A stretch of 64,000 bases of DNA from Candidatus Saccharimonadia bacterium (GTDB lineage Bacteria; Patescibacteriota; SICC01): contig JANWJF010000001.1 of the NCBI GenBank assembly GCA_025449535.1, positions 303,344-367,343 of the forward strand, in the 5' to 3' direction. The notes under the pieces were generated by a model. That model had not been told where the DNA came from. It ran no database searches and saw nothing but the letters and a program-made list of their open reading frames with translations. Positions 1 through 36,053 of the stretch are shown piece after piece; within the stretch, counting starts at the first letter, position 1, and each line of letters begins with the position of its first letter. The translations under genes were made by a program, and so were the position numbers.

Positions 1-3000
1 GTCGCTTTCGACCGGCAGGTCGACCGTTCGTGATCCTCCCGGGTAATCGACCCTGACCCGATAGCTGTCGTACCCCGGAGGCGGCGTGCCGTTCGGGTCG
101 GGGTTCGGTCGGTTGTAATAACCGAGCGTGAGGTCGTACAGACCCGGTTGGACGCCGTCGAGTTGATACGACCAGACCGCCGGAGCGTTGTTGGTACCGC
201 CGCATGCCCCCGGCAAGTTACCCGCTCCACCGCAGAAGAAGGATACGGAGTTGGGGTATGGAGCATAGTTGGTCAAACAGTAGGCATTGGCGCCGCTGCC
301 GAACTGGCAGCTATTGAAGTCACTGCCGTCCTTCGTCACCGACACGTTGTTCAATTGATCCGGATTCGTGCCGAAGTCGAGCTTGTAGCTGGCCTGCCGG
401 TCGTCACCGTTGCTGACCAAGCTCTCCGGGGTGTCGTTGAACCCGTTACTGCGGTTCGGGATCACCCGGGAGACCGTCGGCTGGACCCGCCGTTCCGTCC
501 CGTTATTGTATTGCACGGTGATCGGGAACTGCGGGTTGTCCTGGATCGGCTCGAAGTCACGAACGGAGCCAAGATAGTCGTAGATCTGATACCGCTTGGT
601 CGGCGTCTCGCCGGTGTTCCGGAGCGTCGTCTCCACCTGGACGGTCTGGCCGTCGGTCACGCTGTCCACCACCGCGCCGTTCAGGTCCTTGAACTTCTTG
701 GTGGAACCGGGCGGCAGCAGGTTGGGCCGGCTGTTCTTATGGAAGGTGGCACCGACCGGCGGGCCGAACCGGCGGTAGTTCAACGTGGGTTGGCTGCTGA
801 TCGGTATCGGGTAGCCCGAGTCGACGGTCGCCTGCGGGGTCGAGCGCGACCGGAAGAGGTCGGGGAGGGCGGGCAGCTCCGAGGCGCCGAACCGGTCCTC
901 GCCGCTGGCAGTCCAGGTCACGTCCGCACCTTCCGGCACGTCCTCTTGCAGGAACTGCGTGAGCGTCTTGTTCGGAACGCTCCGGGACGACCCGTTCACG
1001 GTCCAGCTCACGGGGCGCACGTCGTCGCTGGTATAGGTCCGGTTGTTGCCGCTCCCGTAACCGAAGGTACCGAGGTTCTTCAGCCAGCCGCCCCAGCTAT
1101 CACTGTTGAGTCCGCTGCGATTGAAGCTGGTGACGACGTTGGTCTGGCCGTCCTTCGTCCAGCTGATCGCGAAGTATGGCCTGACCTGGTTGTTTTCCGG
1201 GTCTTTCAGGACGATGGCCAGCTTGGAGCAGTTGTAGTTCACGTTGCCCGTGTTGGTAGGATTGTCCGGATCGGCCGAGACGATGGTGGCTACGGGACCC
1301 TTGTTCACGCGGAACTTGATCGCCGTGGTGCATTTTTCGACCGGACCGGGGTTCACGCAGGCCTGCCAGCTGTAATCGGTGTTCGCGCTGAAGGAATTCG
1401 CCTGGATCGGGACGCGGACCTGGTGCGTGCCCGGCTCGACGCTCGTGTTCGACTGGTCCACGCGGGCGACTTCTGCTCCGGTACTGGACTGGTTTACCTT
1501 GACGTAGTGCTTCACCAGCCCGCGGGTCTCCGGCAGCGTGTACTGGAACGCGAAGTCGATGATCGCATCGCCGGCGTTGTTCATCTGGTTGAAGTTCTCC
1601 CGACCGTTATACCGATACTTGCTGGCGTGCGCCTTGGGCGTGTGCGCGGTCACGCTGAAGTCGCTCGTGGCCAGGCACGTCGGCCAGTAGCCCCAGGTGA
1701 ACGGTGCGCCGCCTTGGGCCAGGTTGTTACCGTCGTTCCAGTGGTGGATGTTCAGTCGCCCGCTGAGCTGTTCGTTCGCCCGCCACAGGGGGTTGTAGGG
1801 GCTTCCTGACCCGGCCGGGTCATCAAGGAAAATGGCCCAGCCAGGATATGTCTGCCAAGTACCGCTGATTGAGCCGGAAGCAACTTGTCTCGTGATGCCA
1901 TCCGGCGCGTTATACCCGGAAGTGTTCAGGGTATTATTTTCGTTAAGCGTCCCGACGCGTTCCACCTGCGCGCTGATGTTTTGGTCACCCCCAGGTGGAG
2001 AACCTTCGAAGCCGCCCTTCGGTCCGTCATCCCAGTCGGCATTACCGGCCTTGAAGAGAGCTCCGCCACCGGTGGTTGGGCCGGTCGGTCCTCGATGTGA
2101 CCAATCATCGTTGCGACAACCTGCACCACCGGCCTGGAATCGCAAACCACGATACGACTGCCCGGCCATTTCCTCATACTCATGGTCCTGGCCCGGTTCG
2201 TTCGCCACCCCACCTACCGGACCGTAGCTGATATTGAAGGCAATGCTTGCCGGCGCACTGGCTAGGAACTCCTTGCCACCAGCCAGGTCCTTTGGGGTCC
2301 GCAAGAAATAGCCGTTCTGAACCAGGGGACCGCTAAGGTTGCGGCTCTGGGCGTACCGAAGGATGATTTCCGGACAGCGTAGCGTGTTAAAAGCAGCTGC
2401 GGTCAAGCAGCCATTATTCCAACTACCACTTCTTTGAATGTCATTAACATGTGTTACATACCCGTTAAAGCGGTCTTCAAAGACGACTGCCTTGATGAGA
2501 AACACGTAGTTTCCATTCAGGTTAGGGTAGTACGAACTCAAGAATCGTGCATTCGAATCCACTTGGCTAAAGTTTGCAGAACTCATTGTTCCGCTGTCAC
2601 CCCTAGTCCGGTCATAACAGAAGACGCGGTGCTCGTGTTCCTTGTTGGTGTGCGAACCGGGAACATCGCCGTGACTGTCCCAACCCCAGAAGCAGTTGCC
2701 ACCATCCTCGTAGTTACCAGGACTCCGATTGTAAAAAAGGAGCTTATTCGGATTCAGAAGATAGAAACCAGGGAATTGCTGAAAAGGACTTGCATCCGTA
2801 ATTCCTGAACCGTCCGGGTGGGAATGTGGGTCTCCGTAGTCGACCGGAACGTTATTTTCAAACTGGGCGCAGAAGACCCGGTGCGAATGCCAATTACCCG
2901 CATCGTCGCCAGCGAGAGTATTCGGGCTGTTCCACTCCCAGAAGCAGTTACCGCCACTTTGGTGGTTCGAAGGATGAGTATTGAACTGATCGTGGGCATT

Positions 3001-3909
3001 GTCGTTACGGTTCAACTGGCTCGTGTCTCCGGTTGCACTGCCGGGATTGTGGTGACTGTGCGGAGTATCACCGCTCCCGTGCTCATGACTCCGGCTATCG
3101 TTCTGCCTCACCACCCAAACGTGATCCGCCTCATGGACATGTGATTTATTGCTGTCCCGGCGCACGTTAAAGCATGGATCACTCCCCCCATACCGCCCAT
3201 CACAACTATCCTGTGCGGAGCCATCAAGCGTAATGCGGTTGGTTATTGCGCTACTGGGACCACCTGGTGCGTTAATTTCAAAGGTCCGCCAACAGGGGCC
3301 GTTGGCGCCATTCGAGTACTTGCACCCGTCGTTCGAATTCGGCTGGTTGTCGGTCGTCGGGAATATGTTACGGTCGCGCGGGTTGATGACGCCAAGCAAT
3401 CGGCCATCGCGCGGTCCGCCATTGGATAGCTGATACACCTCGTAGTACACCGGCGAGAGGAATCCGTGCTTCTTGGAAAGGTCGACTATCCCATCCACAT
3501 TCGCCTGGTCGCGGTCGTATCGATCCTGGCCTCCTGAATTATCCTCCGACCAATGCCCGCCACGCAGTTCAAACTTCACATTGGGCGTGGTCGAGCTGAC
3601 GAAGTACTGGTTTGGCATATAGGCCGCGGCCGTTCCGGCCGAGCCGGTCGGTCGATGCACAACTTGGCTCAAGCGCGCGCCGTCGGGAGAAGATCCACCG
3701 GGCGCTGATTGAGGCAATTGGTCCACCGGCGGGTGGATGACGTAATTATTGCGTTGGATCGTGTCACGAAAGTCGCCACCGCCCGTCCCCCACCACTGGT
3801 CACCCATGGCCAACGCGGTAGGTATCATCACGCCCAACACGAGAACGGCAACTGTGAGCAGTCGCCATCGCATGCGAAGTTTTCGTACCTGTAGTAGTTT
3901 TTGTTTCAT
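1..3909 (-). CDS. Very large secreted protein, C-terminus beyond the window edge (at least 1300 aa). N-terminal signal peptide, Asn/Gly-rich, with His-rich patches and repeated Cys/Trp modules (GGNCFWxW...HRVFC).
   Basis: Manual translation of the minus strand from ATG at 3907-3909 (MKQKLLQVRKLRMRWRLLTVAVLVLGVMIPTALA...) found no stop down to position 1. The frame fits the window edge. It is absent from the ORF track only because it lacks an in-window stop. High GC3 in most of the gene. Confidence 0.6.
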   Translation of the reverse strand, partial: MKQKLLQVRKLRMRWRLLTVAVLVLGVMIPTALAMGDQWWGTGGGDFRDTIQRNNYVIHPPVDQLPQSAPGGSSPDGARLSQVVHRPTGSAGTAAAYMPNQYFVSSTTPNVKFELRGGHWSEDNSGGQDRYDRDQANVDGIVDLSKKHGFLSPVYYEVYQLSNGGPRDGRLLGVINPRDRNIFPTTDNQPNSNDGCKYSNGANGPCWRTFEINAPGGPSSAITNRITLDGSAQDSCDGRYGGSDPCFNVRRDSNKSHVHEADHVWVVRQNDSRSHEHGSGDTPHSHHNPGSATGDTSQLNRNDNAHDQFNTHPSNHQSGGNCFWEWNSPNTLAGDDAGNWHSHRVFCAQFENNVPVDYGDPHSHPDGSGITDASPFQQFPGFYLLNPNKLLFYNRSPGNYEDGGNCFWGWDSHGDVPGSHTNKEHEHRVFCYDRTRGDSGTMSSANFSQVDSNARFLSSYYPNLNGNYVFLIKAVVFEDRFNGYVTHVNDIQRSGSWNNGCLTAAAFNTLRCPEIILRYAQSRNLSGPLVQNGYFLRTPKDLAGGKEFLASAPASIAFNISYGPVGGVANEPGQDHEYEEMAGQSYRGLRFQAGGAGCRNDDWSHRGPTGPTTGGGALFKAGNADWDDGPKGGFEGSPPGGDQNISAQVERVGTLNENNTLNTSGYNAPDGITRQVASGSISGTWQTYPGWAIFLDDPAGSGSPYNPLWRANEQLSGRLNIHHWNDGNNLAQGGAPFTWGYWPTCLATSDFSVTAHTPKAHASKYRYNGRENFNQMNNAGDAIIDFAFQYTLPETRGLVKHYVKVNQSSTGAEVARVDQSNTSVEPGTHQVRVPIQANSFSANTDYSWQACVNPGPVEKCTTAIKFRVNKGPVATIVSADPDNPTNTGNVNYNCSKLAIVLKDPENNQVRPYFAISWTKDGQTNVVTSFNRSGLNSDSWGGWLKNLGTFGYGSGNNRTYTSDDVRPVSWTVNGSSRSVPNKTLTQFLQEDVPEGADVTWTASGEDRFGASELPALPDLFRSRSTPQATVDSGYPIPISSQPTLNYRRFGPPVGATFHKNSRPNLLPPGSTKKFKDLNGAVVDSVTDGQTVQVETTLRNTGETPTKRYQIYDYLGSVRDFEPIQDNPQFPITVQYNNGTERRVQPTVSRVIPNRSNGFNDTPESLVSNGDDRQASYKLDFGTNPDQLNNVSVTKDGSDFNSCQFGSGANAYCLTNYAPYPNSVSFFCGGAGNLPGACGGTNNAPAVWSYQLDGVQPGLYDLTLGYYNRPNPDPNGTPPPGYDSYRVRVDYPGGSRTVDLPVESD

Positions 3910-3934
3910 CGGCAGGAACGTGGGAAATTAGGAA

Positions 3935-3963
3935 ACTATACCATCTATCTGCCTTAGTGTCAA
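3935..3963 (-). promoter_or_regulatory. Sigma70-like promoter for the giant secreted protein gene: TTGACA, 17-nt spacer, TATAGT.
   Basis: On the minus strand, TTGACA (3963-3958) and TATAGT (3940-3935) are separated by exactly 17 nt. This places a TSS about 18 nt upstream of the ATG at 3909. Confidence 0.45.
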
Positions 3964-4122: not shown

Positions 4123-4923
4123 TCATGCGCGTTTCTTGACTACCCGGTTTGCACCATTCTTTCCCACGACCCACGGGATCTCGATGGCTCGCATGCGTCC
4201 TTGTATGGGGTCGTAATAGGGAACGGACTGTTGGACGCCCATCGACAGCCCGCACCATTTGTACTCGCGGCATAGCCGCTGGACGGCTTTCCGGTTAATA
4301 ACGAGCCGGATGACGTGATGGTTGCCAGCTGGCAATGCAGGCAACTCGACAACCTTTCGCTTTTTCTTGGGGTTGCCGACGAGCCTGCCGCCTTCGCGAG
4401 CACCCAGGGTGAGGTCGAACTCATTCTTGATCGTGGTCCGGCCTTCATAACTGACGATCGCCACGAATTGCTTCTTCGTCCTCACGATCCTGGTCTGGAG
4501 ATTATTCACTGAGCCAAGAGTCGACAGCGGGAAACTGAGGCGACCGACCTCATCCTGTGTAGTGGGACCAGACGCTATGGCCACCATGGTGAATGTGTAG
4601 TCTTCATCGGTTGGCCCTAGATCAGCCACCCAGCGACTCATGCCTCCTGGCGGCCCCTGTTCGACAGGGGTAACGCTTCGGATGACGAGAGACGGACCGG
4701 TAAACCCACCGTATTCCGCCACGGGTTCCGTGAGGTCAAAATATTGCGCCTCCGACACAACCCTGAATTCGAGTGACTTCGGCAGTGTTGTCGGCTGGCT
4801 GACGTCCGTCACCAGACAGATCTTGCCGTCTTCCGAGCACTGTTCGGCCTGGGCCGTACCTGCGAGCGCGATGCTGAGGACGAGCCCCAGCAGCGCGATG
4901 GTCTTGAATCGCTTGCTGCTCAT
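4123..4923 (-). CDS. Secreted hypothetical protein (266 aa) with a signal peptide (MSSKRFKTIALLGLVLSIALAGTAQA).
   Basis: ORF 4123..4986 trimmed to the ATG at 4923, which is preceded by a strong SD (AAAGGAGG). Classical signal peptide. Confidence 0.6.
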   Translation of the reverse strand: MSSKRFKTIALLGLVLSIALAGTAQAEQCSEDGKICLVTDVSQPTTLPKSLEFRVVSEAQYFDLTEPVAEYGGFTGPSLVIRSVTPVEQGPPGGMSRWVADLGPTDEDYTFTMVAIASGPTTQDEVGRLSFPLSTLGSVNNLQTRIVRTKKQFVAIVSYEGRTTIKNEFDLTLGAREGGRLVGNPKKKRKVVELPALPAGNHHVIRLVINRKAVQRLCREYKWCGLSMGVQQSVPYYDPIQGRMRAIEIPWVVGKNGANRVVKKRA

Positions 4924-5203
4924 TTGAGGCCTCCTTTCATCACGAAAGCAGACGGTAGTGCCTGTTTCCTTAGCCTCCTCACACACCCGAACACTCGGGG
5001 TCGCGAGGAGGCCAAGGATATCGCGTGCCTGTTTGTGAAACTGCGGGAACGGGGATTCAGTATATAAAAATCCCGGCCTGTTTTCGCCGGGATATCCCCT
5101 GTCCTCGTTGTAGCCGCACCATATCGCTACTTTTTACCTTTGTCAAGGTGTTTTTAGTCAAAATAGGAACGGTTTTCCACGTATGCGTTGCTAGAATAAC
5201 CCT

Positions 5204-5449: not shown

Positions 5450-6115
5450 CTACTTCTCGACGGTATTCCCCTCAGGCGGAACCGGGTTCGCCTTGAGGAT
5501 CCGGGCGACGTGCACGAGGTTGTGCGCGGTCCACTTGGCCGTACGCACGGTGTACGGATGCTGCTCCCCGCCGGCCTTAATGAAGCTGTCGCCCGGTCCG
5601 GCCGGACCGACCCAATACGTGTCGACGTTCGGTGGCACGGTGAAGCCGAGGTGGCCGAGGTTGTACAGCGTAGTCCCACAGGCGTCGTGCGCGCCGTCCT
5701 CGTTGCCGGTCACCGCCACGCCGGCGACCTTGTTGTACATCGGGAACTGCCCCACGTCGTTCGTCTCCATATACACGCCGTCAAGCCGCTCGATCACCCG
5801 CTGGGCGATGCTCCCGCGCACGCCGAACCAGATCGGCGTACCGAGCACGAAGATGTCCGCCGCCTTGATCTTGTCGAGTAGCTTCGGCCACTCGTCTTGC
5901 TTACCATTGACCTTTCCTTCATCGGAGGTCACGCCCGGCGGCACGTGGTAATCGACCACGCGGACCGTCTCGTGCGTCACGTCGAGGCCGTCGAAGTGCT
6001 TCGCGACCATCTTGAGCAGCGCCTCGGTGTTGGACGTCTCGGGAGACGCCTTGAGCGTGCAGTTGAAGAGGACGGCGGAAAGCTTAGGACTGTTTTCGAC
6101 GGGTCGCTTGGACAT
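5450..6115 (-). CDS. NAD(P)H-dependent FMN reductase / flavodoxin-like fold protein (222 aa).
   Basis: Motif KIKAADIFVLGTPIWFGVRGSIAQRVIERL is typical of the FMN_red/WrbA family. Start moved to the ATG at 6115 (MSKRP...) because the ORF-track N-terminal extension overlaps the tRNA-Pro gene. Confidence 0.65.
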   Translation of the reverse strand: MSKRPVENSPKLSAVLFNCTLKASPETSNTEALLKMVAKHFDGLDVTHETVRVVDYHVPPGVTSDEGKVNGKQDEWPKLLDKIKAADIFVLGTPIWFGVRGSIAQRVIERLDGVYMETNDVGQFPMYNKVAGVAVTGNEDGAHDACGTTLYNLGHLGFTVPPNVDTYWVGPAGPGDSFIKAGGEQHPYTVRTAKWTAHNLVHVARILKANPVPPEGNTVEK

Positions 6116-6165
6116 CGGATACAGCATACTACTAGCCGGGAGCGACAACCTATAAGCTATAGGTA

Positions 6166-6242
6166 CGGGGCGTGGCGCAGTCTGGCAGCGCGTACGGCTG
6201 GGGGCCGTGAGGTCGCCGGTTCGAATCCGGCCGCCCCGACCA
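6166..6242 (+). tRNA. tRNA-Pro (anticodon GGG), CCA encoded.
   Basis: Cloverleaf folded by hand. Acceptor CGGGGCG/CGCCCCG, D-stem GCGC/GCGC, anticodon stem TACGG/CCGTG with loop CTGGGGG (U33, G37), T-arm GCCGG-TTCGAAT-CCGGC, discriminator A then CCA. Confidence 0.85.
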
Positions 6243-6439
6243 AGTTTGCTAGCTCGGTTGACATGTTTTTTATTAGAGGCATAATGTGACTCACGTTCGG
6301 GTGTCCAGGGGCCTGGGTTCCACGGCATGAGGGAGAGTTACCGGAACCTGGGAGTGACAACCGAGCAAGCAGCGGACGATCGTCAGGGTTACACGTCGTC
6401 CGTCACCATCCGCTCCGTCCAATACCAATAGACTACCGT

Positions 6440-17547: not shown

Positions 17548-18733
17548 ACGACTCCGGCGTCGCGGTCGGGCTCGGGGACGGGGTCGGCGACGGGGTCGCG
17601 TTCTCGCCAGGGATCGGTGCGAACGGATCGCGGCGGCTGGTGGTGGCGGGCTTCAGCGGCGCACCGTACCGGTCGCGTGAAAGGATGCTCCGCCGTTCGT
17701 CGGCACTGAGGTCGATCGCCGGCGGGTTGTAGCCGGCGCCTTCCACGTCCGCCTGGGCCTTCTGGTTGAAGTACCAGAGCGTCCCGTAGGTCGACGTGAC
17801 GACGAGGACGGTCACGCCGGTCACCATCAGCGAGACCACGTGGCGCGAGGCGAACATCCGCGGAGTCAGCCGATTGTACTGCTTGAAGAAGTACAGCACC
17901 GCCCCCGGGATGAACAGGAACGTGACGACCAGCCGCCACTGGGTCTGTTCGACGGCCGTCGGATAGTCGCGGCGATAGCTGTCACGTAGCATCCGGACCC
18001 AGAAGGCCGTCGCGGCGAACGCCAGCACGGCCAGTGCGGCCACGACCGTCAGCTTCAGCGGAGAGAACGAGAGCACCATATCCCAGGCCTGCGCCGGCAG
18101 GCCGGCCAACGACCCGAGGTCCATGCCGCCCGCCTGTCGCAGGCCGAAGTGTTCTCCGGATACCACGGTGGCGCCGGCGACCAGCAGAACGCCTGCTCCC
18201 AGCAACGCCAGAAGTTCCCGATGCGCCTTATGGTCCGGGGTCATCGTGATCGAATCAAGCGCCTGCCGCTTCGCCCGCCTGGCGACGCGTTTGCGAACCG
18301 GCGTGGCAGCCCAGAGCGCGATCCGGCCGAGGAAGGACCAGGCGCCGAGCGCCCAGTAGGCAACGAGGGCCTCGACGGCCCGTCCGGACCGACCAGGTGT
18401 GCAGAAGACCGTGCCAGCCACCGAAGCGACCTCGGAGGCGATCTGCTTCAGTAGACCTTCTCCTGCCCGCGCGGTGCGCCGGGCAGGCTCGGCGACGGCG
18501 CGTTCCGCCGCGACCGCCTTGCGCGCGACGTCTCGCTCCACGGATGCGACCGCCCGGGTCGCCTTCCGTTCGTCCCGCCGGATCTGTCGAACTACGCGCG
18601 CGAACGCGCGCTCGGCGGCTTCGACGAACCCGACGACGCCGGCGTCCGCCTTGGCGACCAGCGCCTCCACGGAACGGTCGAACCGACGGAGTGTCCGTTT
18701 GGATGCCCTGCCGATCTGTGCGAACGGTCTCAT
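17546..18733 (-). CDS. Polytopic membrane protein (395 aa) immediately downstream of pilO. It has N-terminal amphipathic Arg/Ala repeats and a C-terminal Pro/Thr/Ser tail.
   Basis: Start is 2 nt after the pilO stop, so it is probably co-transcribed. Several predicted TM helices. No recognisable domain. Confidence 0.5.
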   Translation of the reverse strand: MRPFAQIGRASKRTLRRFDRSVEALVAKADAGVVGFVEAAERAFARVVRQIRRDERKATRAVASVERDVARKAVAAERAVAEPARRTARAGEGLLKQIASEVASVAGTVFCTPGRSGRAVEALVAYWALGAWSFLGRIALWAATPVRKRVARRAKRQALDSITMTPDHKAHRELLALLGAGVLLVAGATVVSGEHFGLRQAGGMDLGSLAGLPAQAWDMVLSFSPLKLTVVAALAVLAFAATAFWVRMLRDSYRRDYPTAVEQTQWRLVVTFLFIPGAVLYFFKQYNRLTPRMFASRHVVSLMVTGVTVLVVTSTYGTLWYFNQKAQADVEGAGYNPPAIDLSADERRSILSRDRYGAPLKPATTSRRDPFAPIPGENATPSPTPSPSPTATPES

Positions 18734-18734
18734 G

Positions 18735-19325
18735 TCATTTCCCCAAATACAGCGACTGCGCGGTGATGGTCGCCTTCACTTCTCCTGACGAATCCTCCTG
18801 GACGAACTCCAGCGCCGTGACCCGGGTGAAACGATTCATGGTCTCGAGCCGGTTCACGAAGTCCAGGACGTTAGCGTAACTGCCGACGATGTCGATGCTG
18901 ACCGGAAAGGCCGGGAATCCGCCGACGTTCAGCTTGGTCTGCGCTTGGCCGGGGTTCCCGCCTTCCTGCTCGCCGCTGGTATCCACGGTAACGAGGTCCA
19001 CCCTGGTGAGCTGGGCCAGCGCCTCGAGCTCGGTTTGGTACCCGGCGATGTCCTCATGCTTCGGGACGCTCTGAAGTACCGGCGCGTAGACGGCCTCCGT
19101 CGCCGGGAGCGTCTTCTTCACCTCACGCAGGGTGTCGGTCTTCTGCCGGGCGGCGGCGATGTCCGCCTTGGCCGCGGTAATCTGGTCGGCGTGTTCCGCA
19201 AGCAAGCCCATGACCGGCCGCAGGACGAAGAAGCCGATCAGCGCGAGCACAAGGACATTCCCCGCGATCAGGTAGTAGAACCGCTGTTCGGGCTTGATCC
19301 GGAAACCGCTCAGCGCGACCTTCAT
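18735..19325 (-). CDS. pilO: Type IV pilus assembly protein PilO.
   Basis: N-terminal TM, coiled coil and C-terminal ferredoxin-like region with the PilO-typical pattern. ATGA overlap with pilN. Confidence 0.7.
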   Translation of the reverse strand: MKVALSGFRIKPEQRFYYLIAGNVLVLALIGFFVLRPVMGLLAEHADQITAAKADIAAARQKTDTLREVKKTLPATEAVYAPVLQSVPKHEDIAGYQTELEALAQLTRVDLVTVDTSGEQEGGNPGQAQTKLNVGGFPAFPVSIDIVGSYANVLDFVNRLETMNRFTRVTALEFVQEDSSGEVKATITAQSLYLGK

Positions 19326-19915
19326 GACTGCGACCCTTCCAGTTCCTTGGTGTTCACCTTGATCCCGACCGTATACCGGATGACTTTGCCTTCACGGGTC
19401 GTGTTCAGGATCTGTGCCTCCTTGATGAACGGCGACTGGGCCAGTGCCAATTGGAACTGGCCGAGCGCCCGGCGGCTCTCGGTCACGCCGGTAATCTCAC
19501 TGGGATCGCCGTTCCCAGGCTGCGCGGCCTGCGCACCCGTCTGTTGTCCTTGGAACTTGACCGTCTTGATCGAGACGCCGTCGGGCGTCAGGCTCCGGAG
19601 AGCGGAGACGAGCGCCGCCCAACGGGTCGTCTCGCCTTCGGCTTTCTTGAGCTCTCCCAGCTGGAGCGCGAGCTGGTCGGCGTCCTTCTCCACGTCGAGA
19701 TATTCCGCCGCCTGGGCCTCCGCGAGCTGCTGCTCCGCCTGAAGGCTGGTCAGGTTGGCCTTGTAGACCTGGTCGAAGATCAGGAGCAGTCCGGCCATCA
19801 CCAACGCCCCGGTCACGGTCGCGATACCCGCGACGAGCGTGTAATAGTTGAGCAGGTCCGTCTTCCGGCGGCGTTGCTCCTTGTGCGGAAGCAGGTTTAG
19901 CGTGTGTGAATACAT
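19322..19915 (-). CDS. pilN: Type IV pilus assembly protein PilN.
   Basis: NLLP motif right after the start (MYSHTLNLLPHKEQRRRK), one TM helix, coiled coil. Start trimmed to Met21 of the ORF-track model (TTG at 19975). Confidence 0.7.
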   Translation of the reverse strand: MYSHTLNLLPHKEQRRRKTDLLNYYTLVAGIATVTGALVMAGLLLIFDQVYKANLTSLQAEQQLAEAQAAEYLDVEKDADQLALQLGELKKAEGETTRWAALVSALRSLTPDGVSIKTVKFQGQQTGAQAAQPGNGDPSEITGVTESRRALGQFQLALAQSPFIKEAQILNTTREGKVIRYTVGIKVNTKELEGSQS

Positions 19916-20012
19916 GCGTGTGTGTTTACGGGTGGTTGCTGCAAAATTAGACAACCATAACATTATCGGGCCCAAATGTCAATGCTCTCGCGTGCGGTAC
20001 AATGGGTCCAAT

Positions 20013-20756
20013 ATGTCCGGACACAGTAAATGGAGCACCATTAAGCGAAAAAAAGGTGCAGCCGACGCGAAGCGCGGCGCGGCCTTCACTCGCTTGGCAA
20101 ACCTGCTTTCCGTCGCGGCGCGCGAAGGCGGCGGCGACCCGGAGATGAACGTCCAGCTCCGCATGGCGATCGACCAGGCCCGGGCCGAGAACATGCCGAA
20201 CGCCAACATCGACCGCGCGATCAAGCGCGGCACCGGCGAACTGCCCGGCCAGCGACCCCCGGAGTCCGTCACCTACGAGGCCTACGGCCCCGGCGGAGTG
20301 GCGTTGCTCGTGGATTGCCTGACGGACAACAAGAACCGGACCGTCTCCGACGTCCGGTCCGCGGTCACCAAACGGGGCGGTTCGCTCGGGGAGACCGGCT
20401 CGGTCGCGTACCTCTTCGACGAGAAAGGGATTCTCAAGGTGGGCAAGACCGCCGACGAGGACGAACTGATCCTGGCGGCCGCGGATGCCGGCGCGACCGA
20501 CGTGGCGGTCGCCGAAGACGCGTACGAAGTGGAGACGAGCCGGCAGGACCTGGCGAAGGTCCGTGACGCCTTGGCTGCTGGCGGATTCACGGTGCAGGGC
20601 GCGGAGTTGGCGAAGGTGCCGAAGACCGAGGTCCCGGTGACGGACGCCAAGACGGCCGAGGCCGTGGTATCGCTGGTCACCGACCTCGAATCGCTCGACG
20701 ACGTGTCCGACGTCTCGACCAACGCGGACATCGAGCCGGAGCTGGTCGGTGGCTGA
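20013..20756 (+). CDS. yebC: YebC/PmpR family DNA-binding transcriptional regulator.
   Basis: MSGHSKWSTIKRKKGAADAKRG...AIKRGTG is highly conserved in this family. Start trimmed to the ATG at 20013. Confidence 0.85.
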   Translation: MSGHSKWSTIKRKKGAADAKRGAAFTRLANLLSVAAREGGGDPEMNVQLRMAIDQARAENMPNANIDRAIKRGTGELPGQRPPESVTYEAYGPGGVALLVDCLTDNKNRTVSDVRSAVTKRGGSLGETGSVAYLFDEKGILKVGKTADEDELILAAADAGATDVAVAEDAYEVETSRQDLAKVRDALAAGGFTVQGAELAKVPKTEVPVTDAKTAEAVVSLVTDLESLDDVSDVSTNADIEPELVGG

Positions 20757-21243
20757 GTTGCGGGTCGCTGGGTTCGACCCGGGGAACGCCCGGACCGGTT
20801 ATGCCATCCTCGACGTCGACGGCAAGGACCTCCGGCTGGTGGAGGCGGGACTCATCTCCACGGAGAGCGGCGAGACCCCGGAGCGACGCCTCGCCCATAT
20901 CGCCCGCGACGTCGAGGCGGTGCTGAAGAAGCACCGGCCGCACGGGGTCGCGGTGGAGGAGTTGTTCTTCTCGAAGAACGTGACGACCGCGATCCGGGTA
21001 GCGGAAGCGCGCGGCGTCATCCTGGCGGCGGTGGCGGCAGCCGGCCTGTCCGCCGCGGAGTACGGCCCGGGGACCGTCAAGCAGCAGCTGACCGGGTTCG
21101 GCCGGGCTTCCAAGGACCAGGTCTCGACGATGGCCTGCCGTCTGGTGGGACTGCAGGAAGCGCCCAAGCCGGACGACGTCACTGACGCCATCGCCGTGGC
21201 GATCTGCCACGCGTTCCGGTTCAAGCTGGCAGCGACGGGTTAG
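20749..21243 (+). CDS. ruvC: Crossover junction endodeoxyribonuclease RuvC.
   Basis: RVAGFDPG...TGYAI with catalytic acidic residues. GTG start overlaps the yebC stop. Confidence 0.85.
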   Translation: MAELRVAGFDPGNARTGYAILDVDGKDLRLVEAGLISTESGETPERRLAHIARDVEAVLKKHRPHGVAVEELFFSKNVTTAIRVAEARGVILAAVAAAGLSAAEYGPGTVKQQLTGFGRASKDQVSTMACRLVGLQEAPKPDDVTDAIAVAICHAFRFKLAATG

Positions 21244-21638
21244 TCCGTCTCCCGGAGCCACTCGATCGCCCTGGACTCGTCCTCGAAGACCTCGATCCGG
21301 TCCTGCCGGTTCGCCATCTTCACCATGAAGTGGAGGACCACCCGCAGCGTCGGGTTCATATGGACGATCGCCATCCGCTTGAAGTCGCGAGTAGCCATCA
21401 GGCGTCGCCAGGCCTGCACCTCCGGCTCTCCGAAGGCGCCGAGCTCTCCGACGTCGACGAGGATCATCACCGGCTCTCCCTGTTCCCGGAGCTGCTCGGC
21501 GAACTCGTCGGACTGCTCGCTGAGCTTCACGATGCCCTCCGCGGTCTGCTTGCCACGATAGTACATCCGCATGATGCCGTCGCGCCCCATCGTGACCTCG
21601 TTCTTGCCAGGTTGTTTCGTTCCGTCGGTCATGGTCAT
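21240..21638 (-). CDS. STAS-domain (SpoIIAA-like anti-sigma-factor antagonist fold) protein.
   Basis: PVMILVDVGELGAFGEPEVQAWRRL...RMAIVHMNPTLRVVLHFMVKMANRQDRIEVFEDESRAIEWL follows the STAS pattern. Confidence 0.5.
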   Translation of the reverse strand: MTMTDGTKQPGKNEVTMGRDGIMRMYYRGKQTAEGIVKLSEQSDEFAEQLREQGEPVMILVDVGELGAFGEPEVQAWRRLMATRDFKRMAIVHMNPTLRVVLHFMVKMANRQDRIEVFEDESRAIEWLRETD

Positions 21639-22642
21639 GAATCCTGTCTCAGTGCGTGCGCCGCGTCCTCGGGAAATACCGTCACTACGATGATCCCGGT
21701 GGAGATTTCCAGCCCGCCGGGAATCGCCAGGTGCGGCAGGATGTCGATATGCCAGCGGAAGCCCCGCAGTTCCTTCTCGGTGACGTCCACCGGCGCCGTC
21801 CGGATATACGCGTTGTACGGCGGGACGCCCGCGATCCGGTTCAGTCGGCGGGACACCAGGTTGAGGATCCGCGCCAGGTGCTCGAGCTGCTCCTGCGTGA
21901 TCTCGTGGAAGTGCGATCCCGCTTGCTTCGGCATGATCCGGATATGGTAATCGGCGTAGGGCGCGAACGGGCAGTACACCAGGAACTTCGAGTTCTCGTA
22001 GATGACCCGGGACGCGTCGTGGATCTCCCGCTGGACCTCGTCCTCACCCAGTTTGCCGCGGCTCCGGTCGTAATGTTCGGCCGCGGCCTTGACCAGCCCC
22101 TCGATGTACGGCGGGACGACCGGCAATGCCACGATCTGGGTGTGCGGGTGCACGACCGAGGCGCCGGCGTCCTTGCCACGGTTGGTGAAGATTTGCACGT
22201 GCTTGATGTGCGACATGTGCGAGATGTGGTTGTACCGCTTCAGGTAGAGCTCCAGGACCGCCTGGGTCTGTTCGGGCGTGAACGAATCGAAGTCCTGGTC
22301 GGGGTCCGGCGAGTGGATGACGATCTCGTGCACACCGAAACCGTCGCGGACGTGTCCCGTATCCCGCGGCTTCCCGCCGCCGCCTTTGCCCACGAACGGG
22401 TACAGGTTCTTGATCGCCATCGCTTTCCAAGTGCTCGGCGTCCCGTACGTGGTACCGTCGTTGTTCGGGATTACGTCGACGATATCCTCCTTTCGGATGT
22501 TCTCAGGCGAGAAGGGATCGCGCCGGACCTTGGGCGACGCATGGTCGACATAGTCCTGCGGCCGCTCGGCTCGTCCCGAGGCGATCAGGACCCAACGCTT
22601 GTCCATGTGGCCGCGACGCAGTTCTGAGGGAAAGTTTTCCAT
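21635..22642 (-). CDS. galT: Galactose-1-phosphate uridylyltransferase (HIT superfamily).
   Basis: N-terminal ELRRGHMDKRWVLIASGRAERP and the HPHxQ active site (VHPHTQIVALP). Start trimmed to the ATG at 22642. Confidence 0.8.
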   Translation of the reverse strand: MENFPSELRRGHMDKRWVLIASGRAERPQDYVDHASPKVRRDPFSPENIRKEDIVDVIPNNDGTTYGTPSTWKAMAIKNLYPFVGKGGGGKPRDTGHVRDGFGVHEIVIHSPDPDQDFDSFTPEQTQAVLELYLKRYNHISHMSHIKHVQIFTNRGKDAGASVVHPHTQIVALPVVPPYIEGLVKAAAEHYDRSRGKLGEDEVQREIHDASRVIYENSKFLVYCPFAPYADYHIRIMPKQAGSHFHEITQEQLEHLARILNLVSRRLNRIAGVPPYNAYIRTAPVDVTEKELRGFRWHIDILPHLAIPGGLEISTGIIVVTVFPEDAAHALRQDS

Positions 22643-22700
22643 GGTTTGAAAATTGCTTAACCATAACACAATAGTGCTTAATAGTCAAGACTCGAGGTCG

Positions 22701-23834
22701 TTATCGTGCGAGCGTCCGGTAGGCCTGAAGATACTCCCGGCCCATCTTTTCCCATGAGAACCGCTTCGTCCGGCGCTTCCCGAGCCGTTCCAGTTCCCGC
22801 CGCCGCGTCTCATCTGTGGCCAGCCGACGCATGGCGGCTGCGATCGAGTCCGGGTCGCCTGGATCCGTAAACTCAGCGGCATCGCCGGCCACTTCACGGA
22901 ACGGGAGGATATCGGAACACACTACCGCCCTGCCGAGACTCATCGCTTCCAGTAAAGGAAGTCCGAAACCCTCGTATCGGGATGGATAGACGAAAAAATC
23001 AGCTTCGTTCAAAAGGACCGTCTTGTCCACGTCATCCACGTAACCGGTACACACCAACCGATCGGACTTTCCCGCTGCGGCGAAGGCCGATTCGACCACC
23101 TTGCGCGTCTTGAGCGTTTCCGGACGGTCGAATTTGGATATGAGCACCAGTTGGTGCGGAATGGAATCCGCTATCTTGAGAAACGATTCCGCGAGCATCG
23201 GAAGGTTCTTGCGTCTCGTCCCACTGCCTACGTACAACACGAACGGTTCCGTGATGGCGTACCGTTTTTGCAGCTTCAGGAACTGGTCATGTGACTTGGG
23301 CGGCGTCAGCGAATCGAATCCGTTATGGATGACGGATACTTTACTCGCCGGGAAATCCGGACATAGCGCCGACAACTCACGCTTGGTGAATTCGGTGATA
23401 CAGACAACACTGTCGGCATTGTCGAGCGACCGGCCGAATGATTCCTTGAACGTCGCCACCTGCTGGCCGCTCAATTCGTCTTCTCCGCGCAGCGGGATCA
23501 GGTCGTGGACCGTCAGTACCGTAGGTATGGAAAGCGCGGGCGGCAGGCCGAATCCGAACGGGTTATGGAAGGCGTCGGGCCGGTCCCGCTCGATCACCGC
23601 CGCGAACCGGTCCTTCTCATATGTCGCGTTCTTGCCGGAAAGGAAGGCGGTATCGAACGGGACGAACCGCAGGTCTTTCCGGGCGATCCCGGGAAGATTG
23701 GCTGCGTACGCCTCCTGGCAGTAGACGACGAGCTCCAGGTCCTGCTTGCTCAATTCCGCGAGAAGGTTCCGGACATAGTCGTTCAACCCGCTGGTGCGAT
23801 CCGTAACGTTACGTGCGTCGACCCCTACTTTCAT
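22701..23834 (-). CDS. Glycosyltransferase family 4 (GT-B, RfaB-like).
   Basis: EGFGLPLLEAMSLGRAVVCSD motif and GT4 architecture. 4-nt overlap with the upstream GT4 gene. Confidence 0.85.
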   Translation of the reverse strand: MKVGVDARNVTDRTSGLNDYVRNLLAELSKQDLELVVYCQEAYAANLPGIARKDLRFVPFDTAFLSGKNATYEKDRFAAVIERDRPDAFHNPFGFGLPPALSIPTVLTVHDLIPLRGEDELSGQQVATFKESFGRSLDNADSVVCITEFTKRELSALCPDFPASKVSVIHNGFDSLTPPKSHDQFLKLQKRYAITEPFVLYVGSGTRRKNLPMLAESFLKIADSIPHQLVLISKFDRPETLKTRKVVESAFAAAGKSDRLVCTGYVDDVDKTVLLNEADFFVYPSRYEGFGLPLLEAMSLGRAVVCSDILPFREVAGDAAEFTDPGDPDSIAAAMRRLATDETRRRELERLGKRRTKRFSWEKMGREYLQAYRTLAR

Positions 23835-30043: not shown

Positions 30044-30862
30044 CTACCGTTCCGTCGAAAAACTGATCCCGGAACTGGAGATCGTCGCCGTGACGGTCCC
30101 GTGCCGGTCCGTCCGCACTACCCGACAACCAGACGCGCCCAACCGCCGTACGGTATCCGGATTAGGATGACCATAAGTATTGCCCGTGCCGGAAGAAACG
30201 ATACACCACGTTGGGCTTGTCTCCTTGATGAACTCATCGGTCGAGGACGTCCGACTGCCATGATGCGGCACTTTCAGCACCTCGGTGTCCAACCCGGGGC
30301 GGCCGAGCAAACGACGTTCCTCGGCTTCTTCCGCGTCTCCGGGAAAAAGGAACGAACGACCATGCAGCGTGACTCGGACCACGACCGACGCGTCATTCGC
30401 GTTTTCGTAGCGTCTTCGTTGCCGGGCCGTCGGTTCGAGTATCTCGACCGTGCCGCCATGGATTCCCACCCGCTGTCCCGCCGCCGTAACGAGTCTGCTA
30501 TGTGAGTCGGCCTCCACGACCAAACGTTCGTACGGCCCGTCTCCCGCCTGGTTCACGAGCACCGTCCCGACGTCGTACCGGGCGATGACGTCGACCAAGC
30601 CGCCATAATGATCCAGGTGCGGGTGGCTCAGGATGACCAGCTCTATCCTCCGATCGAACCGCGGCATCGCCTTGCCTAGACCGCGCAATACGGCACGGTC
30701 AGGCCCGCCGTCGATCAAGATTTGCGTTCCGTGGCCGTCATCCACCAAGGCGGCATCCCCCTGTCCGACATCAAAGAAACGGACGGTGGCCCGCGAATCG
30801 GAAGCTGTTGTCCAGATACTGAACGCCAAGACGCCGACGATCGCGATGGCTGCCTTAAACAT
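30044..30862 (-). CDS. comEC: ComEC/Rec2 C-terminal metallo-beta-lactamase domain as a separate ORF with its own N-terminal TM helix.
   Basis: ILSHPHLDHYGGL and KVPHHGSRTSS motifs. Overlaps the upstream ComEC membrane-domain ORF by 8 nt in a different frame. Confidence 0.75.
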   Translation of the reverse strand: MFKAAIAIVGVLAFSIWTTASDSRATVRFFDVGQGDAALVDDGHGTQILIDGGPDRAVLRGLGKAMPRFDRRIELVILSHPHLDHYGGLVDVIARYDVGTVLVNQAGDGPYERLVVEADSHSRLVTAAGQRVGIHGGTVEILEPTARQRRRYENANDASVVVRVTLHGRSFLFPGDAEEAEERRLLGRPGLDTEVLKVPHHGSRTSSTDEFIKETSPTWCIVSSGTGNTYGHPNPDTVRRLGASGCRVVRTDRHGTVTATISSSGISFSTER

Positions 30863-32234
30863 GCGCCCTTGGCCTCAGGCGGACCGCACAAAGCCCGACG
30901 GTCGCGGCGAGCAGCAACGCTATCGGACCTTTCAGGTTCCCGAACGAGACGGATGCTACCGGTAACGCGGCGGTACGTTCTACGCCAGCCAGCAACAGCT
31001 CCGTAGCCGCGGCAACGAGTACCGCTGGCCACGCGGCCACCCCCGGCAAGACGAACGAGATAGCGGTACCGACGAACCCGCCGAGCATGAGCAAAGGGAT
31101 CGCCGGCACCACGAACAGGTTCGTCAAAGGAGCCACCAGGCTGGCCGTCCCGAACGTCAGGGCGATGAGCGGCGCGGTCGTGATGCCGGCGGCCAACGTC
31201 CCAGAGACGATGCCGCTGACGGAGTCCGGAACCCATGGCAGACGGGTTCGGATCCCCGGTTCCAGCCACAGGATGCCGAGCGTGGCCAAGAAGGAAAGGT
31301 CGAATCCCAGGTCGTATCGCAACGCATGGGGTTGCAACAGCAACATTCCCGCGGCCGTCAGGACCGTGGCGAACATCGCCGCTTGGGGACGCCCAAAAAG
31401 CTGACCTAACAACAGGAAACCTCCCATCAGTGCGGCCCGTGCCACCGATGCGGAAGGTCCCACCATGAGCACGAAGCACGCTATCAAGAGCAACGAGATG
31501 ACCAGCGCCGCTGGCTTCCGACCCAGTACCCAGACGATCGCCGTGATGATGATACTGATATTGAACCCGGACAGCGCGAGGATATGCGTGGTGCCGGTCC
31601 GGCGGAACGCCTCGATGTGAGCGTCCGACAACGTCGACCTTTCGCCTATCAGGATACCCAGCATGAAGCCGGCCGTCGGTTCGGGAAAAGTACGCTCGAC
31701 TTGCCGTACCCAGGTCCTGCGGACGGCATAGAACAAACGGCTGACCGTGAGATGGCTTCCTTCGACCCGGACGTCGGCTCGGCGCAGTATCGAATGGATA
31801 CCGTCCTTCGCAAGGTAGCTACGATAGTCGAACTCATCGTCAGCCTTCGGCTCGGTCAGCTGCCCCGTCACCGATACCCGGTCACCCGGTGATAACTCGG
31901 AAAACGGATCAGTCCTGACTAATGTCCTGCCGTTCCGTCCCATCGTCTCGCCGGTCACCACGAACTGCTGGTACTCACCGCGATGCTCGGGGAACGAATC
32001 GACAACGCCGAGTATCGTTCGTTCCGTTCCCGCCACCGTGACAAGGTCGGAGACCGGCGGATCCAAAGGACTTACTAGTATCCGTAGTGCGCCGATCGCC
32101 ACACCCAGGGCCGCCAACGGGCGCCAACCCAGCAGAACCAAGCCCATCCCGACTGCGACGGCGGCCGGCAACCAGGACGCCAAGGCCACGCCGATAATCA
32201 CACCTGATGCCAATAGTAAGGCTGGTTGCTTCAT
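30855..32234 (-). CDS. comEC: ComEC/Rec2 N-terminal part: DUF4131 and the competence membrane channel domain.
   Basis: GFMLGILIGERSTLSDAHIEAFRRTGTTHILALSGFNISII is the conserved competence-domain core. Multiple TM helices. Confidence 0.8.
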   Translation of the reverse strand: MKQPALLLASGVIIGVALASWLPAAVAVGMGLVLLGWRPLAALGVAIGALRILVSPLDPPVSDLVTVAGTERTILGVVDSFPEHRGEYQQFVVTGETMGRNGRTLVRTDPFSELSPGDRVSVTGQLTEPKADDEFDYRSYLAKDGIHSILRRADVRVEGSHLTVSRLFYAVRRTWVRQVERTFPEPTAGFMLGILIGERSTLSDAHIEAFRRTGTTHILALSGFNISIIITAIVWVLGRKPAALVISLLLIACFVLMVGPSASVARAALMGGFLLLGQLFGRPQAAMFATVLTAAGMLLLQPHALRYDLGFDLSFLATLGILWLEPGIRTRLPWVPDSVSGIVSGTLAAGITTAPLIALTFGTASLVAPLTNLFVVPAIPLLMLGGFVGTAISFVLPGVAAWPAVLVAAATELLLAGVERTAALPVASVSFGNLKGPIALLLAATVGLCAVRLRPRAHV

Positions 32235-35300: not shown

Positions 35301-36053
35301 GTCCGTCTCAGCGGCAAAGACGGACGCCGTCAGCGTCCCGTGGCCGTTGTCGTCGGTAGGACCGTTCGCGTCGTTCTTGAACACGCTGAGCACGTGGGTC
35401 CCGTTAACGAAGTCCATGCCGTCGTGATCGTCGATATATCCGTTGCCGTCGTCGTCGAGGTTGTTATCGGGAGTCTCGTCGTCGTTCGTCCACATCTTGG
35501 CGGTAAGGTCCTGGTGCGAGGCGTTCACGCCGGTGTCGATGCTGGCGATGGTCGTCGAGCTCGACCCCACGGTACGGTCCCAGGCGGCCGGCGCCTTGAT
35601 CTTAGGCAGGGCCCACTGGTTCGGGTAATGTGGATCGTCCGGGGTACGGGAAGCGGTGACGACGAAGTCCGGCGTCGCGCTGCGGACACCCGGCAGCGCC
35701 GAGACCCGGTCGTCGGCTTGCTCGACCGGTTCGTCGATGGACAGTAAATACGTATCGGGAATAGTAGTCCCGGTCAGGCGGTCGCCGAACTGCTGCTTCG
35801 CCGCTTCATCCCGCAGACGGACGACCAGCCGACCCTTCGCGGCCTTGGTCCGCTTGCCGTTCTTGAGCGTGACCGTCTCCAGCGGCTGGCCGTGTACTTC
35901 GGTCAACTTGTTGATTGCGTCGCCTGCCTGCCGGACGGACGGTTCCTTCTCGACCGGTGCGTCGGGAGCCTTTCCGAGTACCGTGATGGCCGCTATGCCC
36001 ATTAGCCCGACGACGGCCGCGGTGAATACCTTCTGTAGGACGTTTGTTTTCAT
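32364..36053 (-). CDS. Giant secreted multidomain protein (1229 aa): N-terminal subtilisin-like S8 peptidase, about five repeated beta-sandwich domains, and a C-terminal SpoIID/LytB domain.
   Basis: Signal peptide. S8 catalytic Asp/His/Ser motifs: IDTGV, HGTLTASVFAAE, GTSLAAPHVAGVAGL. Repeated segments of about 100 aa. C-terminal SpoIID motifs LEEYLRGLGEVP...AIKAQVTAARTYA...VYNGYNNE...FYSSNAAGHTADNEDVWGG. Confidence 0.85.
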   Translation of the reverse strand: MKTNVLQKVFTAAVVGLMGIAAITVLGKAPDAPVEKEPSVRQAGDAINKLTEVHGQPLETVTLKNGKRTKAAKGRLVVRLRDEAAKQQFGDRLTGTTIPDTYLLSIDEPVEQADDRVSALPGVRSATPDFVVTASRTPDDPHYPNQWALPKIKAPAAWDRTVGSSSTTIASIDTGVNASHQDLTAKMWTNDDETPDNNLDDDGNGYIDDHDGMDFVNGTHVLSVFKNDANGPTDDNGHGTLTASVFAAETDNGLGVAGVDWNAKIIAIKVLNSAGNGFFSDVAEGVRYAGVVGADVANMSLGADGLTSEAMTDQAITEAIADGTILVAASGNDGYTNSINYPAINPSVISVGATGSSDARAGYSNGGSQLDLVAPGSSVRGAGLGNTSYVSASGTSLAAPHVAGVAGLLRALDPDISWSRVRTVLRSSADTVSGMNGASRTNLYGHGRLDANGAQAMVKEYSAEWVRQSASASATSGTDRSVYVDYKNVGLEPWSNTGADAIRLGTSHPKDHKSPFYNASWQSKNRVTSFTGRVESNGSVTTTDTIQSGETARFAFTMTSPPRTSTATLREYFQPVIDGVTWLEDHSKYITTTVPGRFYRGQLVDKTNPPSVVTPGEKSTVTADVKNIGTATWRNDTAYDMNIGTIKPMDHNSAWYDSATWQSRNRLGKFVGKVEDGTVTPGNAIAPGETARWSFDLKAPAKGGKYTEYFSSVIENFGWQHDLGLSWTQTVPTRAYDYDYVSKASHYRYLSQDETDTLFIRLRNMGYTTWQSDGDTPVRLGTDRPQDRGSGFSDGGTAAGWLSSNRVKLGSNVTDPAKNVGGETSVAPGEIGEFEFDIVANPGPGTYKEYFRPVVNGVGWMKDIGIHWSITIENPIDVALTAQSSATMRGTNTVTIRDINGANRGTVAPATNFTLRKDGSNYQAVLPSGTVNSCCILTAEQAPGNRFVVTNLADNASQDYFRGSMAIRTGSAGTHLVNSVNLEEYLRGLGEVPDGWPIEAIKAQVTAARTYAARKIQSPRADSFDLYDDTRDQVYNGYNNETAKPNHVTAVGATNGKVVKYSGSLVQAFYSSNAAGHTADNEDVWGGSPISYLRGKADSFSQVGDTDHLWPDTTSRETIRSNYGFGCTVTGVGIISKHPGDRMRTVRLAGSCGNHDYTLTADTHRSRLGLPSSQVTSVSKSGNNFVFNGKGFGHGIGMSQWGAYRRALSGQSYAQILQFYYTGASVGTL

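Follow-up and report, generated by a model that had tools for sequence, protein, structure and literature searches.

Cultivated members of the candidate phyla radiation (CPR, or Patescibacteria), a group of ultra-small bacteria, live attached to other microbes and depend on type IV pili (T4P) to bind their hosts and to move (PMC11623550). CPR lack PilQ (PMC6744442). The host-recognising proteins of CPR are mostly unknown, and no counterpart of PilC/PilY1, a protein held at the pilus tip in other bacteria, has been described for them. Here we describe a giant secreted protein encoded at one end of a 64,000-nucleotide stretch of DNA (the window) from Candidatus Saccharimonadia bacterium (GenBank assembly GCA_025449535.1, contig JANWJF010000001.1, positions 303,344 to 367,343 of the forward strand). 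Its gene is the first of a T4P cluster, and its C-terminal domain defines a wide, previously undescribed CPR family which heads pilM-pilN-pilO, unannotated, across distant CPR lineages.

Several described systems are relevant to this protein. PilC/PilY1 proteins are large, carry a type-I signal peptide and combine a variable N-terminal part with a conserved C-terminal part (10.64898/2026.09.18.752573; PMC13533445). They are held at the pilus tip, and license pilus assembly, via their last ~10–12 residues. Monomer models leave these residues disordered, and a minor pilin of the PilK family gains a beta-strand from them (10.64898/2026.09.18.752573; PMC13533445). The same strand donation has been suggested, by AlphaFold prediction only, for MshQ, which is unrelated to PilC/PilY1 (PMC13533445). 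In ComZ, the sheet of a GspK-like tip pilin carries an ice-binding-like solenoid immediately ahead of its final strand (PMC6561018). The tapirins of Caldicellulosiruptor are cellulose-binding beta-helix proteins found near a T4P locus (10.1101/359786). Within the CPR, PilX1 and PilX2 of Nanosynbacter lyticus TM7x are large T4P-locus proteins which have been proposed to be tip adhesins (PMC11623550).

Residues are numbered here from Met1, encoded by the ATG at position 3909 of the window; labels such as P0001 and L001 denote protein clusters and loci, respectively. The minus-strand frame that opens at this ATG is free of stops over all 1303 codons up to the window edge (1..3909), as an earlier, sequence-only reading of the stretch had claimed; no stop codon had been missed. 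These are codons 1–1303 of 1814, the first 72% of the protein, the other 511 lying past the edge. A full-length, 100% identical copy was found as P0001 in L001 (contigs of 0.68–0.81 Mb). It supplies the C-terminus that the sequence-only reading had expected further along the contig, and the informative parts are found there: a conserved C-terminal domain, followed by pilM-pilN-pilO. The product is 1814 amino acids (aa) long when counted from ATG 3909, or 1780 aa by the gene call of the Joint Genome Institute (JGI), and has a mass of ~194 kDa. The secreted protein of more than 1300 aa that had been anticipated is, at full length, one of 1814 codons with a Sec signal peptide.

Downstream of the giant gene lie pilM, pilN, pilO and a gene for a membrane protein of ~94 aa. 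This order is the same in all five giant-gene loci (L001 and L003–L006), and in those whose contigs reach further (L003, L004 and L006) it continues with pilB, pilT, pilC, pilin, pilD and the minor pilins. By eye, no hairpin followed by a T-run is present in the 85-nucleotide (nt) gap between the giant gene and pilM. Five distant family members, which share only the C-terminal domain (25–33% identity over that domain), also lie directly upstream of pilM or, in L009, of pilN; in L009 pilM has moved, and the family gene stays with pilN, pilO and an 88-aa gene. Adjacency to pilM or pilN is thus found for 10/10 sampled genes, the ten loci being a sample and not a census.

The gene that follows pilO encodes a single-pass membrane protein of 88–97 aa in eight of the ten loci; the contigs of L008 and L010 end sooner. 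In this genome it is the 94-aa protein gene at 17972–18256 of L001, outside the window, and the others are in L003–L007, L009 and L011. A C-terminal NPF is conserved in six aligned sequences and is extended to DPNSPS.VNPF in the giant-gene loci. The protein may be a PilP-like adaptor. Between the 94-aa gene and pilB-pilT, L001 carries genes for aspS, an inositol-phosphatase-like protein, a major facilitator superfamily transporter and EamA (18374–22861), an insertion of four genes which splits a pilus cluster that is contiguous in relatives.

Full-length relatives of the giant protein are rare: an indexed search of 5.8 billion proteins returned only eight clusters, and a profile re-search of that index returned the same eight. 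In contrast, a profile of the core and C-terminal regions, used in an exhaustive HMMER search, found at least 380 clusters (50% identity) at E ≤ 1e-3, ~25 of them full-length-like and well over 100 matching only the last ~290 profile positions. The conserved C-terminal domain (C-domain) is ~290 aa long. It ends no more than 11 residues from the C-terminus in 139/139 proteins, and the non-conserved part of family members ranges from about 200 to 1500 aa. Named members include Falkowbacteria and Nomurabacteria. No description of the family was found in Pfam, in NCBIfam or in the literature, of which coverage was incomplete, and it is in neither the CPR protein-family survey nor the Saccharibacteria T4P study. 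It merits a domain model of its own.

Typical short members of the family (~500–600 aa) carry Trp-rich GWAWSxNxGWIxF repeats, often with Cys-rich stretches, before the C-domain; these include P0031, P0033, P0037, P0045, P0055, P0071 and others (L007, L008 and L011). Three or more such motifs, which have no Pfam match, are present in 82 of 144 proteins, and the giant subfamily is without them.

The C-domain ends in a tail of constrained length. In 128 of 159 proteins, 15–18 residues follow an invariant DGR..PPG motif, and this tail, with the consensus (F/L)xDFxxxLPxWxExxP, is the best-conserved stretch of the domain. In the AlphaFold2 (AF2) monomer model, the tail has a predicted local distance difference test (pLDDT) score of 28–47, and the preceding ~160 residues one of 60–88. 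A medium-confidence model predicts that the C-domain folds as an ice-binding-type beta-solenoid, like the domain of ComZ. Weak matches of C-domains to DUF7305, choice-of-anchor A and bactofilin point to the same fold; those to DUF7305 and choice-of-anchor A all stay below the Pfam gathering score. For DUF7305 (PF23981), 5/32 C-domains match weakly, the best at E 1.2e-4 and under the gathering score of 27 bits, and the C-domain of the window protein itself shows no match to this model. Nothing relevant was found in the literature on DUF7305, and one DUF7305 protein, P0173, is on a contig too short for gene context. A prepilin N-terminus is present in none of 159 family members, and the Pfam model N_methyl has no match.

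The remainder of the giant protein consists of conserved and optional parts, all encoded on the minus strand. A conserved N-domain (residues 35–240; 3190..3807) contains a disulfide loop, CKYSNGANGPCW, has many invariant alignment columns and is 38–70% identical to relatives. It is followed by variable insert 1 (residues 241–445; 2575..3189) and by a conserved core (residues 446–1180; 370..2574), which is defined by alignment conservation and by BLASTP matches to ~25 full-length-type relatives. Variable insert 2 (residues 1181–1430) is present in four of eight relatives; its part within the window comprises residues 1181–1303 (1..369). The conserved C-terminal region (residues 1431–1814) lies beyond the window edge. 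The minimal scaffold, as seen for example in P0015, is ~1200 aa long and lacks both inserts. Residues 1310–1368 of P0001, within insert 2 and outside the window, form a beta/gamma-crystallin domain (PF00030; score 37.8 bits, cutoff 25 bits, E 2.2e-9), which is seen in insert 2 of the window-gene lineage only. To this domain the NCBI record of the same protein owes its name, ‘beta/gamma crystallin-related protein [Patescibacteria group bacterium]’, a name which therefore reflects only an incidental insert.

The window-encoded part has little resemblance to known proteins: searches of Pfam, NCBIfam and PDB sequences gave only Pectinesterase at 0.064 and two PDB matches at E > 0.1. AF2 models were made of residues 35–870 (mean pLDDT 39) and 871–1814 (mean pLDDT 47), and are poor overall because the alignments held only eight sequences. 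Their confident segments predict beta-sandwich domains in the core at residues ~783–868, 871–1005 and 1050–1140. Foldseek comparison of the 871–1814 model with the PDB gave only meaningless matches, with template modelling scores of ~0.2. With a pI of 5.3, the mature protein is acidic, and it has much Asn, Gly, Ser and Thr; at 9.2% Asn and 10.5% Gly overall it agrees with its earlier description as Asn/Gly-rich with His-rich stretches. Many Cys pairs are spaced 9–25 residues apart. CPR genomes are enriched in the MdbA/VKOR disulfide-forming system (PMC6744442); with this enrichment, and with Cys pairs so close together, disulfides in the giant protein are plausible. It is probably surface-exposed.

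Insert 1 contains a 29-residue module in exactly two copies, GGNCFWEWNSPNTLAGDDAGNWHSHRVFC (residues 319–347; 2869..2955, minus strand) and GGNCFWGWDSHGDVPGSHTNKEHEHRVFC (residues 403–431; 2617..2703, minus strand), and the recurring GGNCFW...HxHRVFC module of the sequence-only reading is thereby borne out. The copies match each other at E about 2e-8, with 49% identity over 35 aa, and the skeleton pattern, present twice in the window, arose not once in 100 shuffles. A third, related motif that had been listed with them, ‘NDGCKYSNGANGPCW’, belongs instead to the CKYSNGANGPCW disulfide loop of the conserved N-domain, whose C206 and W207 do not vary across the family; that domain also occurs in relatives without modules, and the motif is not a module copy. 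The supposition that the module matches no common adhesin repeat holds, and it extends to known metal-binding and carbohydrate-binding repeat families: residues 241–445 had no match at E ≤ 1 in Pfam, NCBIfam or the PDB. A check for paralogues found no further copy in the window or in the fetched loci. Among metagenomes, a scan of JGI contigs with insert 1 found no relative, and a scan with the skeleton pattern gave three matches, all within stop-filled frames.

Only P0002, the nearest orthologue, has insert 1 in common with the window protein. The identity of 68% is as high as in the rest of the protein, which argues that the insert is not junk. In P0003–P0007 the insert is swapped for two 4-Cys repeats of ~100 aa each, and it is absent from P0008, P0010, P0011 and P0015. 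The module is part of an optional insert and not the defining feature of the giant protein. It is a small orphan cassette confined to one lineage, possibly a metal-dependent binding hairpin. The His content of residues 241–445 is 9.3%, compared with 1.2–1.9% in other regions, and all six H-x-H motifs of the 1814-aa protein are in insert 1, where six are observed vs 1.64 expected from its own composition (P = 0.0028); 6/6 are conserved in position in P0002. Judged from these residues, metal binding by the putative metal-binding modules is plausible. AF2 pairs FWEWNS with HSHRVF as a hairpin at low confidence, insert 1 having a pLDDT of ~22 and being effectively unmodelled. Disulfides are predicted between C322 and C347 in the first module and between C406 and C431 in the second. 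We infer that the putative C322–C347 bond would staple the FWEWNS/HSHRVF hairpin, and that W324, W326, H341 and H343 would lie on one side of the hairpin, beneath a variable loop, acidic and rich in His, that is 14 residues long (20 residues in the second copy of P0002).

The giant gene is a recombinant mosaic, as is indicated by a switch in clade affinity along its length. Residues 35–775 are nearer to the P0003/P0004 clade (49–74% identity vs 28–58%), while residues 815–1560 are nearer to the P0005/P0006 clade (51–72% vs 33–60%). The switch, and with it the recombination breakpoint, lies at residues ~750–850 (window ~1360–1660). On this pattern of identities, N-terminal halves exchange between lineages, as expected of an exposed recognition end. 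Close strain variants differ by one residue at most and are uninformative on diversifying selection.

GC content at third codon positions (GC3) is depressed over the first ~700 codons of the gene. At codons ~690–720 (1750..1842, minus strand) there is a step from 0.49–0.69 on the 5' side to 0.84–0.93 on the 3' side. The 3' values match the genome background, which is 0.87–0.92 in five neighbouring L001 genes and 0.80–0.89 in seven of eight window genes measured; the eighth, which encodes the secreted protein upstream, has a GC3 of 0.67. The lower-GC segment that the sequence-only reading had placed in the middle of the visible gene is real (GC 0.48–0.51 at 2251–3000), but it is only the trough of this wider depression. 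The genes for P0002, P0003, P0005 and P0008 show the 5' depression too. Its presence in all five lineages examined makes it a property of the family and not the mark of a single transfer event, and a recent transfer of the 5' part from one low-GC donor is ruled out. The step is likewise ruled out as a family-wide module-swap boundary, since relatives match the core from residue ~445. Recurrent exchange of the N-terminal half, reduced biased gene conversion and selection are candidate causes.

The combination of a predicted solenoid with a constrained tail, in a family without a pilin domain, suggests a PilC/PilY1-like, ‘split ComZ’ explanation. By analogy with those systems, we give an even chance to the reading that the giant protein is a PilC/PilY1-like adhesin of the pilus, not itself a pilin, whose variable N-terminal part faces outward. 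The C-terminal solenoid and the length-constrained tail would couple the protein to the pilus, most likely through a beta-strand that the tail donates in trans to a minor pilin at the tip. The lineage-variable N-terminal part would face outward as the host- or substrate-binding end, on which the CFW...HxHRVFC modules would be disulfide-stapled hairpins presenting His/Asp-rich loops, possibly in a metal-dependent manner. A broader proposal, which we put forward more tentatively, is that the secretin-less type IVa pili of CPR have in the C-domain family their missing equivalent of PilC/PilY1; the tail strand would license assembly and keep the protein at the tip, and N-terminal halves with orphan cassettes would be host-recognition heads that set host range in these episymbionts. 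With one end constant for coupling to the pilus and an outer end that can be swapped, the family would be a concrete candidate for the adhesin or assembly factor that is missing. Several points weigh against a pilus adhesin. The AF2 models, with mean pLDDT of 39 and 47 from eight-sequence alignments, are poor overall, and the fold assignment depends on a ~160-residue segment (pLDDT 60–88) of one such model. The beta-propeller that defines PilY1 is absent in Pfam scans, and no PilK/GspK-like partner that lacks its last strand was identified in these clusters. Another candidate pilus adhesin, a 527-aa CBM60 protein, is encoded after the minor pilin genes of L009 (10903–12486). Finally, linkage to the pilM/N/O alignment subcomplex is more readily understood for a basal-body partner than for a protein at the tip, and in L009 the family gene stays with pilN-pilO though pilM has moved. 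The pilC genes of Neisseria, however, are not known to be linked to minor pilin genes either, which offsets the argument from linkage.

The same linkage favours the main rival reading, that of an envelope-spanning machine component, which we consider rather unlikely. The C-domain and tail would then dock on the extracytoplasmic portions of PilN/PilO and on the single-pass membrane protein of 88–97 aa. In this way the protein would make up or anchor the outer part of the secretin-less CPR pilus machine, crossing the wall and the S-layer and standing in functionally for PilP/PilQ, and its variable N-terminal part would reach the surface beside the pilus exit. Such a role would suit a gene that lies directly upstream of pilM or pilN in 10/10 loci and never beside minor pilins, that has no hairpin and T-run between it and pilM, and that in L009 keeps pilN, pilO and the 88-aa gene after pilM has moved. 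The small NPF membrane protein is present even in distant L007, and CPR lack PilQ (PMC6744442). The variable part nevertheless looks unlike a machine component, because its range of about 200 to 1500 aa, its optional inserts and its inter-lineage recombination would be more usual in an adhesin exposed at the surface than in a ring or scaffold subunit. The giant protein bears no resemblance to secretins or PilP: neither domain was found in the giant protein, the family or the loci, and the 30 larger open reading frames (ORFs) of the window that were scanned held no secretin. The predicted beta-solenoid is nearest to a tip pilin domain (that of ComZ) and to adhesins, and the constrained, free C-terminal tail matches the plug logic of PilC/PilY1. 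The protein might instead be a free-standing adhesin or coat which is merely co-transcribed with the pilus genes; its C-terminal solenoid would retain it on the wall or S-layer, with no physical attachment to the pilus or the pilus machine. A near-consensus promoter suggestive of high expression and an acidic, Asn/Gly/Ser/Thr-rich composition (pI 5.3) would fit this, and tapirins, too, lie near a T4P locus (10.1101/359786). In tapirins, however, it is the solenoid that binds the ligand, whereas in the giant family solenoid and tail are conserved and the rest varies. Pfam scans show no wall-anchoring motif (LPXTG, SLH or LysM), and co-regulation alone rarely preserves an adjacency such as that to pilM/pilN across very divergent CPR lineages, whose C-domains are about 25–30% identical; we therefore regard a free-standing protein as improbable. 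Some T4P systems export proteins encoded in their operon, and the Sec signal peptide, the position in a pilus operon and the conserved terminal domain would be in keeping with a TcpF-like exoprotein, released by the pilus machine with the C-domain as its recognition signal. This last possibility appears very remote, as secretion signals are seldom of the size of a 290-aa solenoid and CPR have no outer membrane to cross (PMC6744442).

The start of the giant gene is placed differently by the databases: the JGI start (MGDQ..., past the signal peptide) and the NCBI start (M13) both give a shorter protein than ATG 3909. An ATG-AAA start (MK...) is aligned across five lineages, and this conservation supports both the start at ATG 3909 and the promoter in front of it. 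The N-terminus reads MKQKLLQVRKLRMRWRLLTVAVLVLGVMIPTALA|MGDQ. Residues 1–34 (3808..3909, minus strand) are read from the sequence as a Sec type-I signal peptide, and this N-terminus is kept in relatives. A K/R-rich basic n-region, an 18-residue hydrophobic core and a predicted cleavage site at ALA|MG substantiate the signal peptide claimed earlier. The sigma-70-type promoter (3935..3963, minus strand) consists of TTGACA at 3963–3958, a spacing of 17 nt and TATAGT at 3940–3935 with a TG extended -10. It scores 11/12 and is the sole such site in the 64-kb window, and 0/100 shuffles gave one. Five lineages whose proteins are 34–62% identical share, in alignment, TTGACA, a spacing of 17 nt and a -10 box of the form TATnnT; score, shuffles and conservation together uphold the textbook promoter of the sequence-only reading. 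The short leader (3910–3934) places 25 nt between the -10 box and the ATG. It holds no Shine-Dalgarno-like sequence and has a conserved TAATTTCC / TTCCTGCCG element common to relatives.

Opposite the giant gene, a plus-strand ORF at 148–1809 (553 aa) was rejected as a gene shadow: its GC content at first codon positions of 0.86, with a GC3 of 0.54, mirrors the GC3 of 0.85 of the giant gene. Upstream of the promoter, a separate transcription unit on the minus strand (4123..4986) encodes a fast-evolving secreted protein of ~265 aa, with a Sec signal peptide common to relatives. Translation probably begins at the Met at 4923. In 5/5 giant-gene loci there is a neighbour comparable in size and position, at 19–71% identity, and the protein has no Pfam match.

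The remainder of the window consists of ordinary CPR housekeeping genes. A 1229-aa protein with subtilase S8, N_BRCA1_IG Ig-like and SpoIID domains is encoded at 32364–36053 (minus strand); it may be a wall-remodelling or host-attacking enzyme. At 30855–32234 (minus strand) is a ComEC (Competence and DUF4131) without a fused metallo-beta-lactamase domain, a form reported to be typical of CPR (PMC6744442). A tRNA-Pro(GGG) at 6166–6242 (plus strand) overlaps the 5' end of an FMN reductase ORF (5450–6328, minus strand), and the overlap implies that the FMN reductase gene starts further downstream. A promoter-like TTGACA-16-CATAAT lies at 6258–6285 (plus strand). Two ORFs, at 56954–58771 (plus strand, 605 aa) and 58775–60022 (minus strand, 415 aa), have coding-like GC3 values of 0.77 and 0.74 and no Pfam match.

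Among known systems, the Pam pili of CPR were set aside as a counterpart, being an unrelated donor-strand-exchange system. The tapirins differ from the giant family in gene position, and in that their beta-helix binds the ligand, whereas in the giant family the helix is conserved and the N-terminal part varies. Comparators of the ice-binding-like and choice-of-anchor A type (DUF3494, TIGR04215) match below the gathering score in every case, and DUF7305 (PF23981) spans only the last ~150 residues of the C-domain. Neither the linkage to pilM nor the first half of the C-domain, with its PWLxTxxGxIYS...NATYxIxAxG pattern, belongs to a described family. ComZ of Thermus thermophilus (PDB 6QVI) is pilin-like: it has a hydrophobic helix at the N-terminus and a GspK-like domain, and the giant family has neither; a search of PDB sequences with the family C-domain profile listed no ComZ.

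Within the CPR, the giant protein resembles PilX1 and PilX2 of TM7x in being a large T4P-locus protein without a PilD signal peptide. As described, PilX1 and PilX2 have an N-terminal helix and a globular pilin domain, followed by a C-terminal accessory domain (a jelly-roll or a seven-bladed propeller); the giant family is set apart from them by this description only, and TM7x PilX1 could belong to the C-domain family. The likeness to PilC/PilY1 (IPR008707/PF05567) extends to several features. Both are very large, non-pilin proteins with a type-I signal peptide, both join a variable N-terminal part (inserts 1 and 2 being optional in the giant family) to a conserved C-terminal part, and both have, at the extreme C-terminus, a conserved tail which monomer models leave disordered. 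The genes of both also lie among T4P genes. PF05567 itself has no match at E ≤ 0.1 in the full-length proteins, nor at E ≤ 1 in 32 C-domains. Unlike PilC/PilY1, which belongs to diderm bacteria, the giant family has no beta-propeller and a C-domain modelled as a beta-solenoid, its gene lies upstream of pilM/N/O and not with the minor pilins, and it occurs in a monoderm-like CPR bacterium, which has no secretin. It is a large, non-pilin, T4P-associated protein with a different predicted fold and a different gene position.

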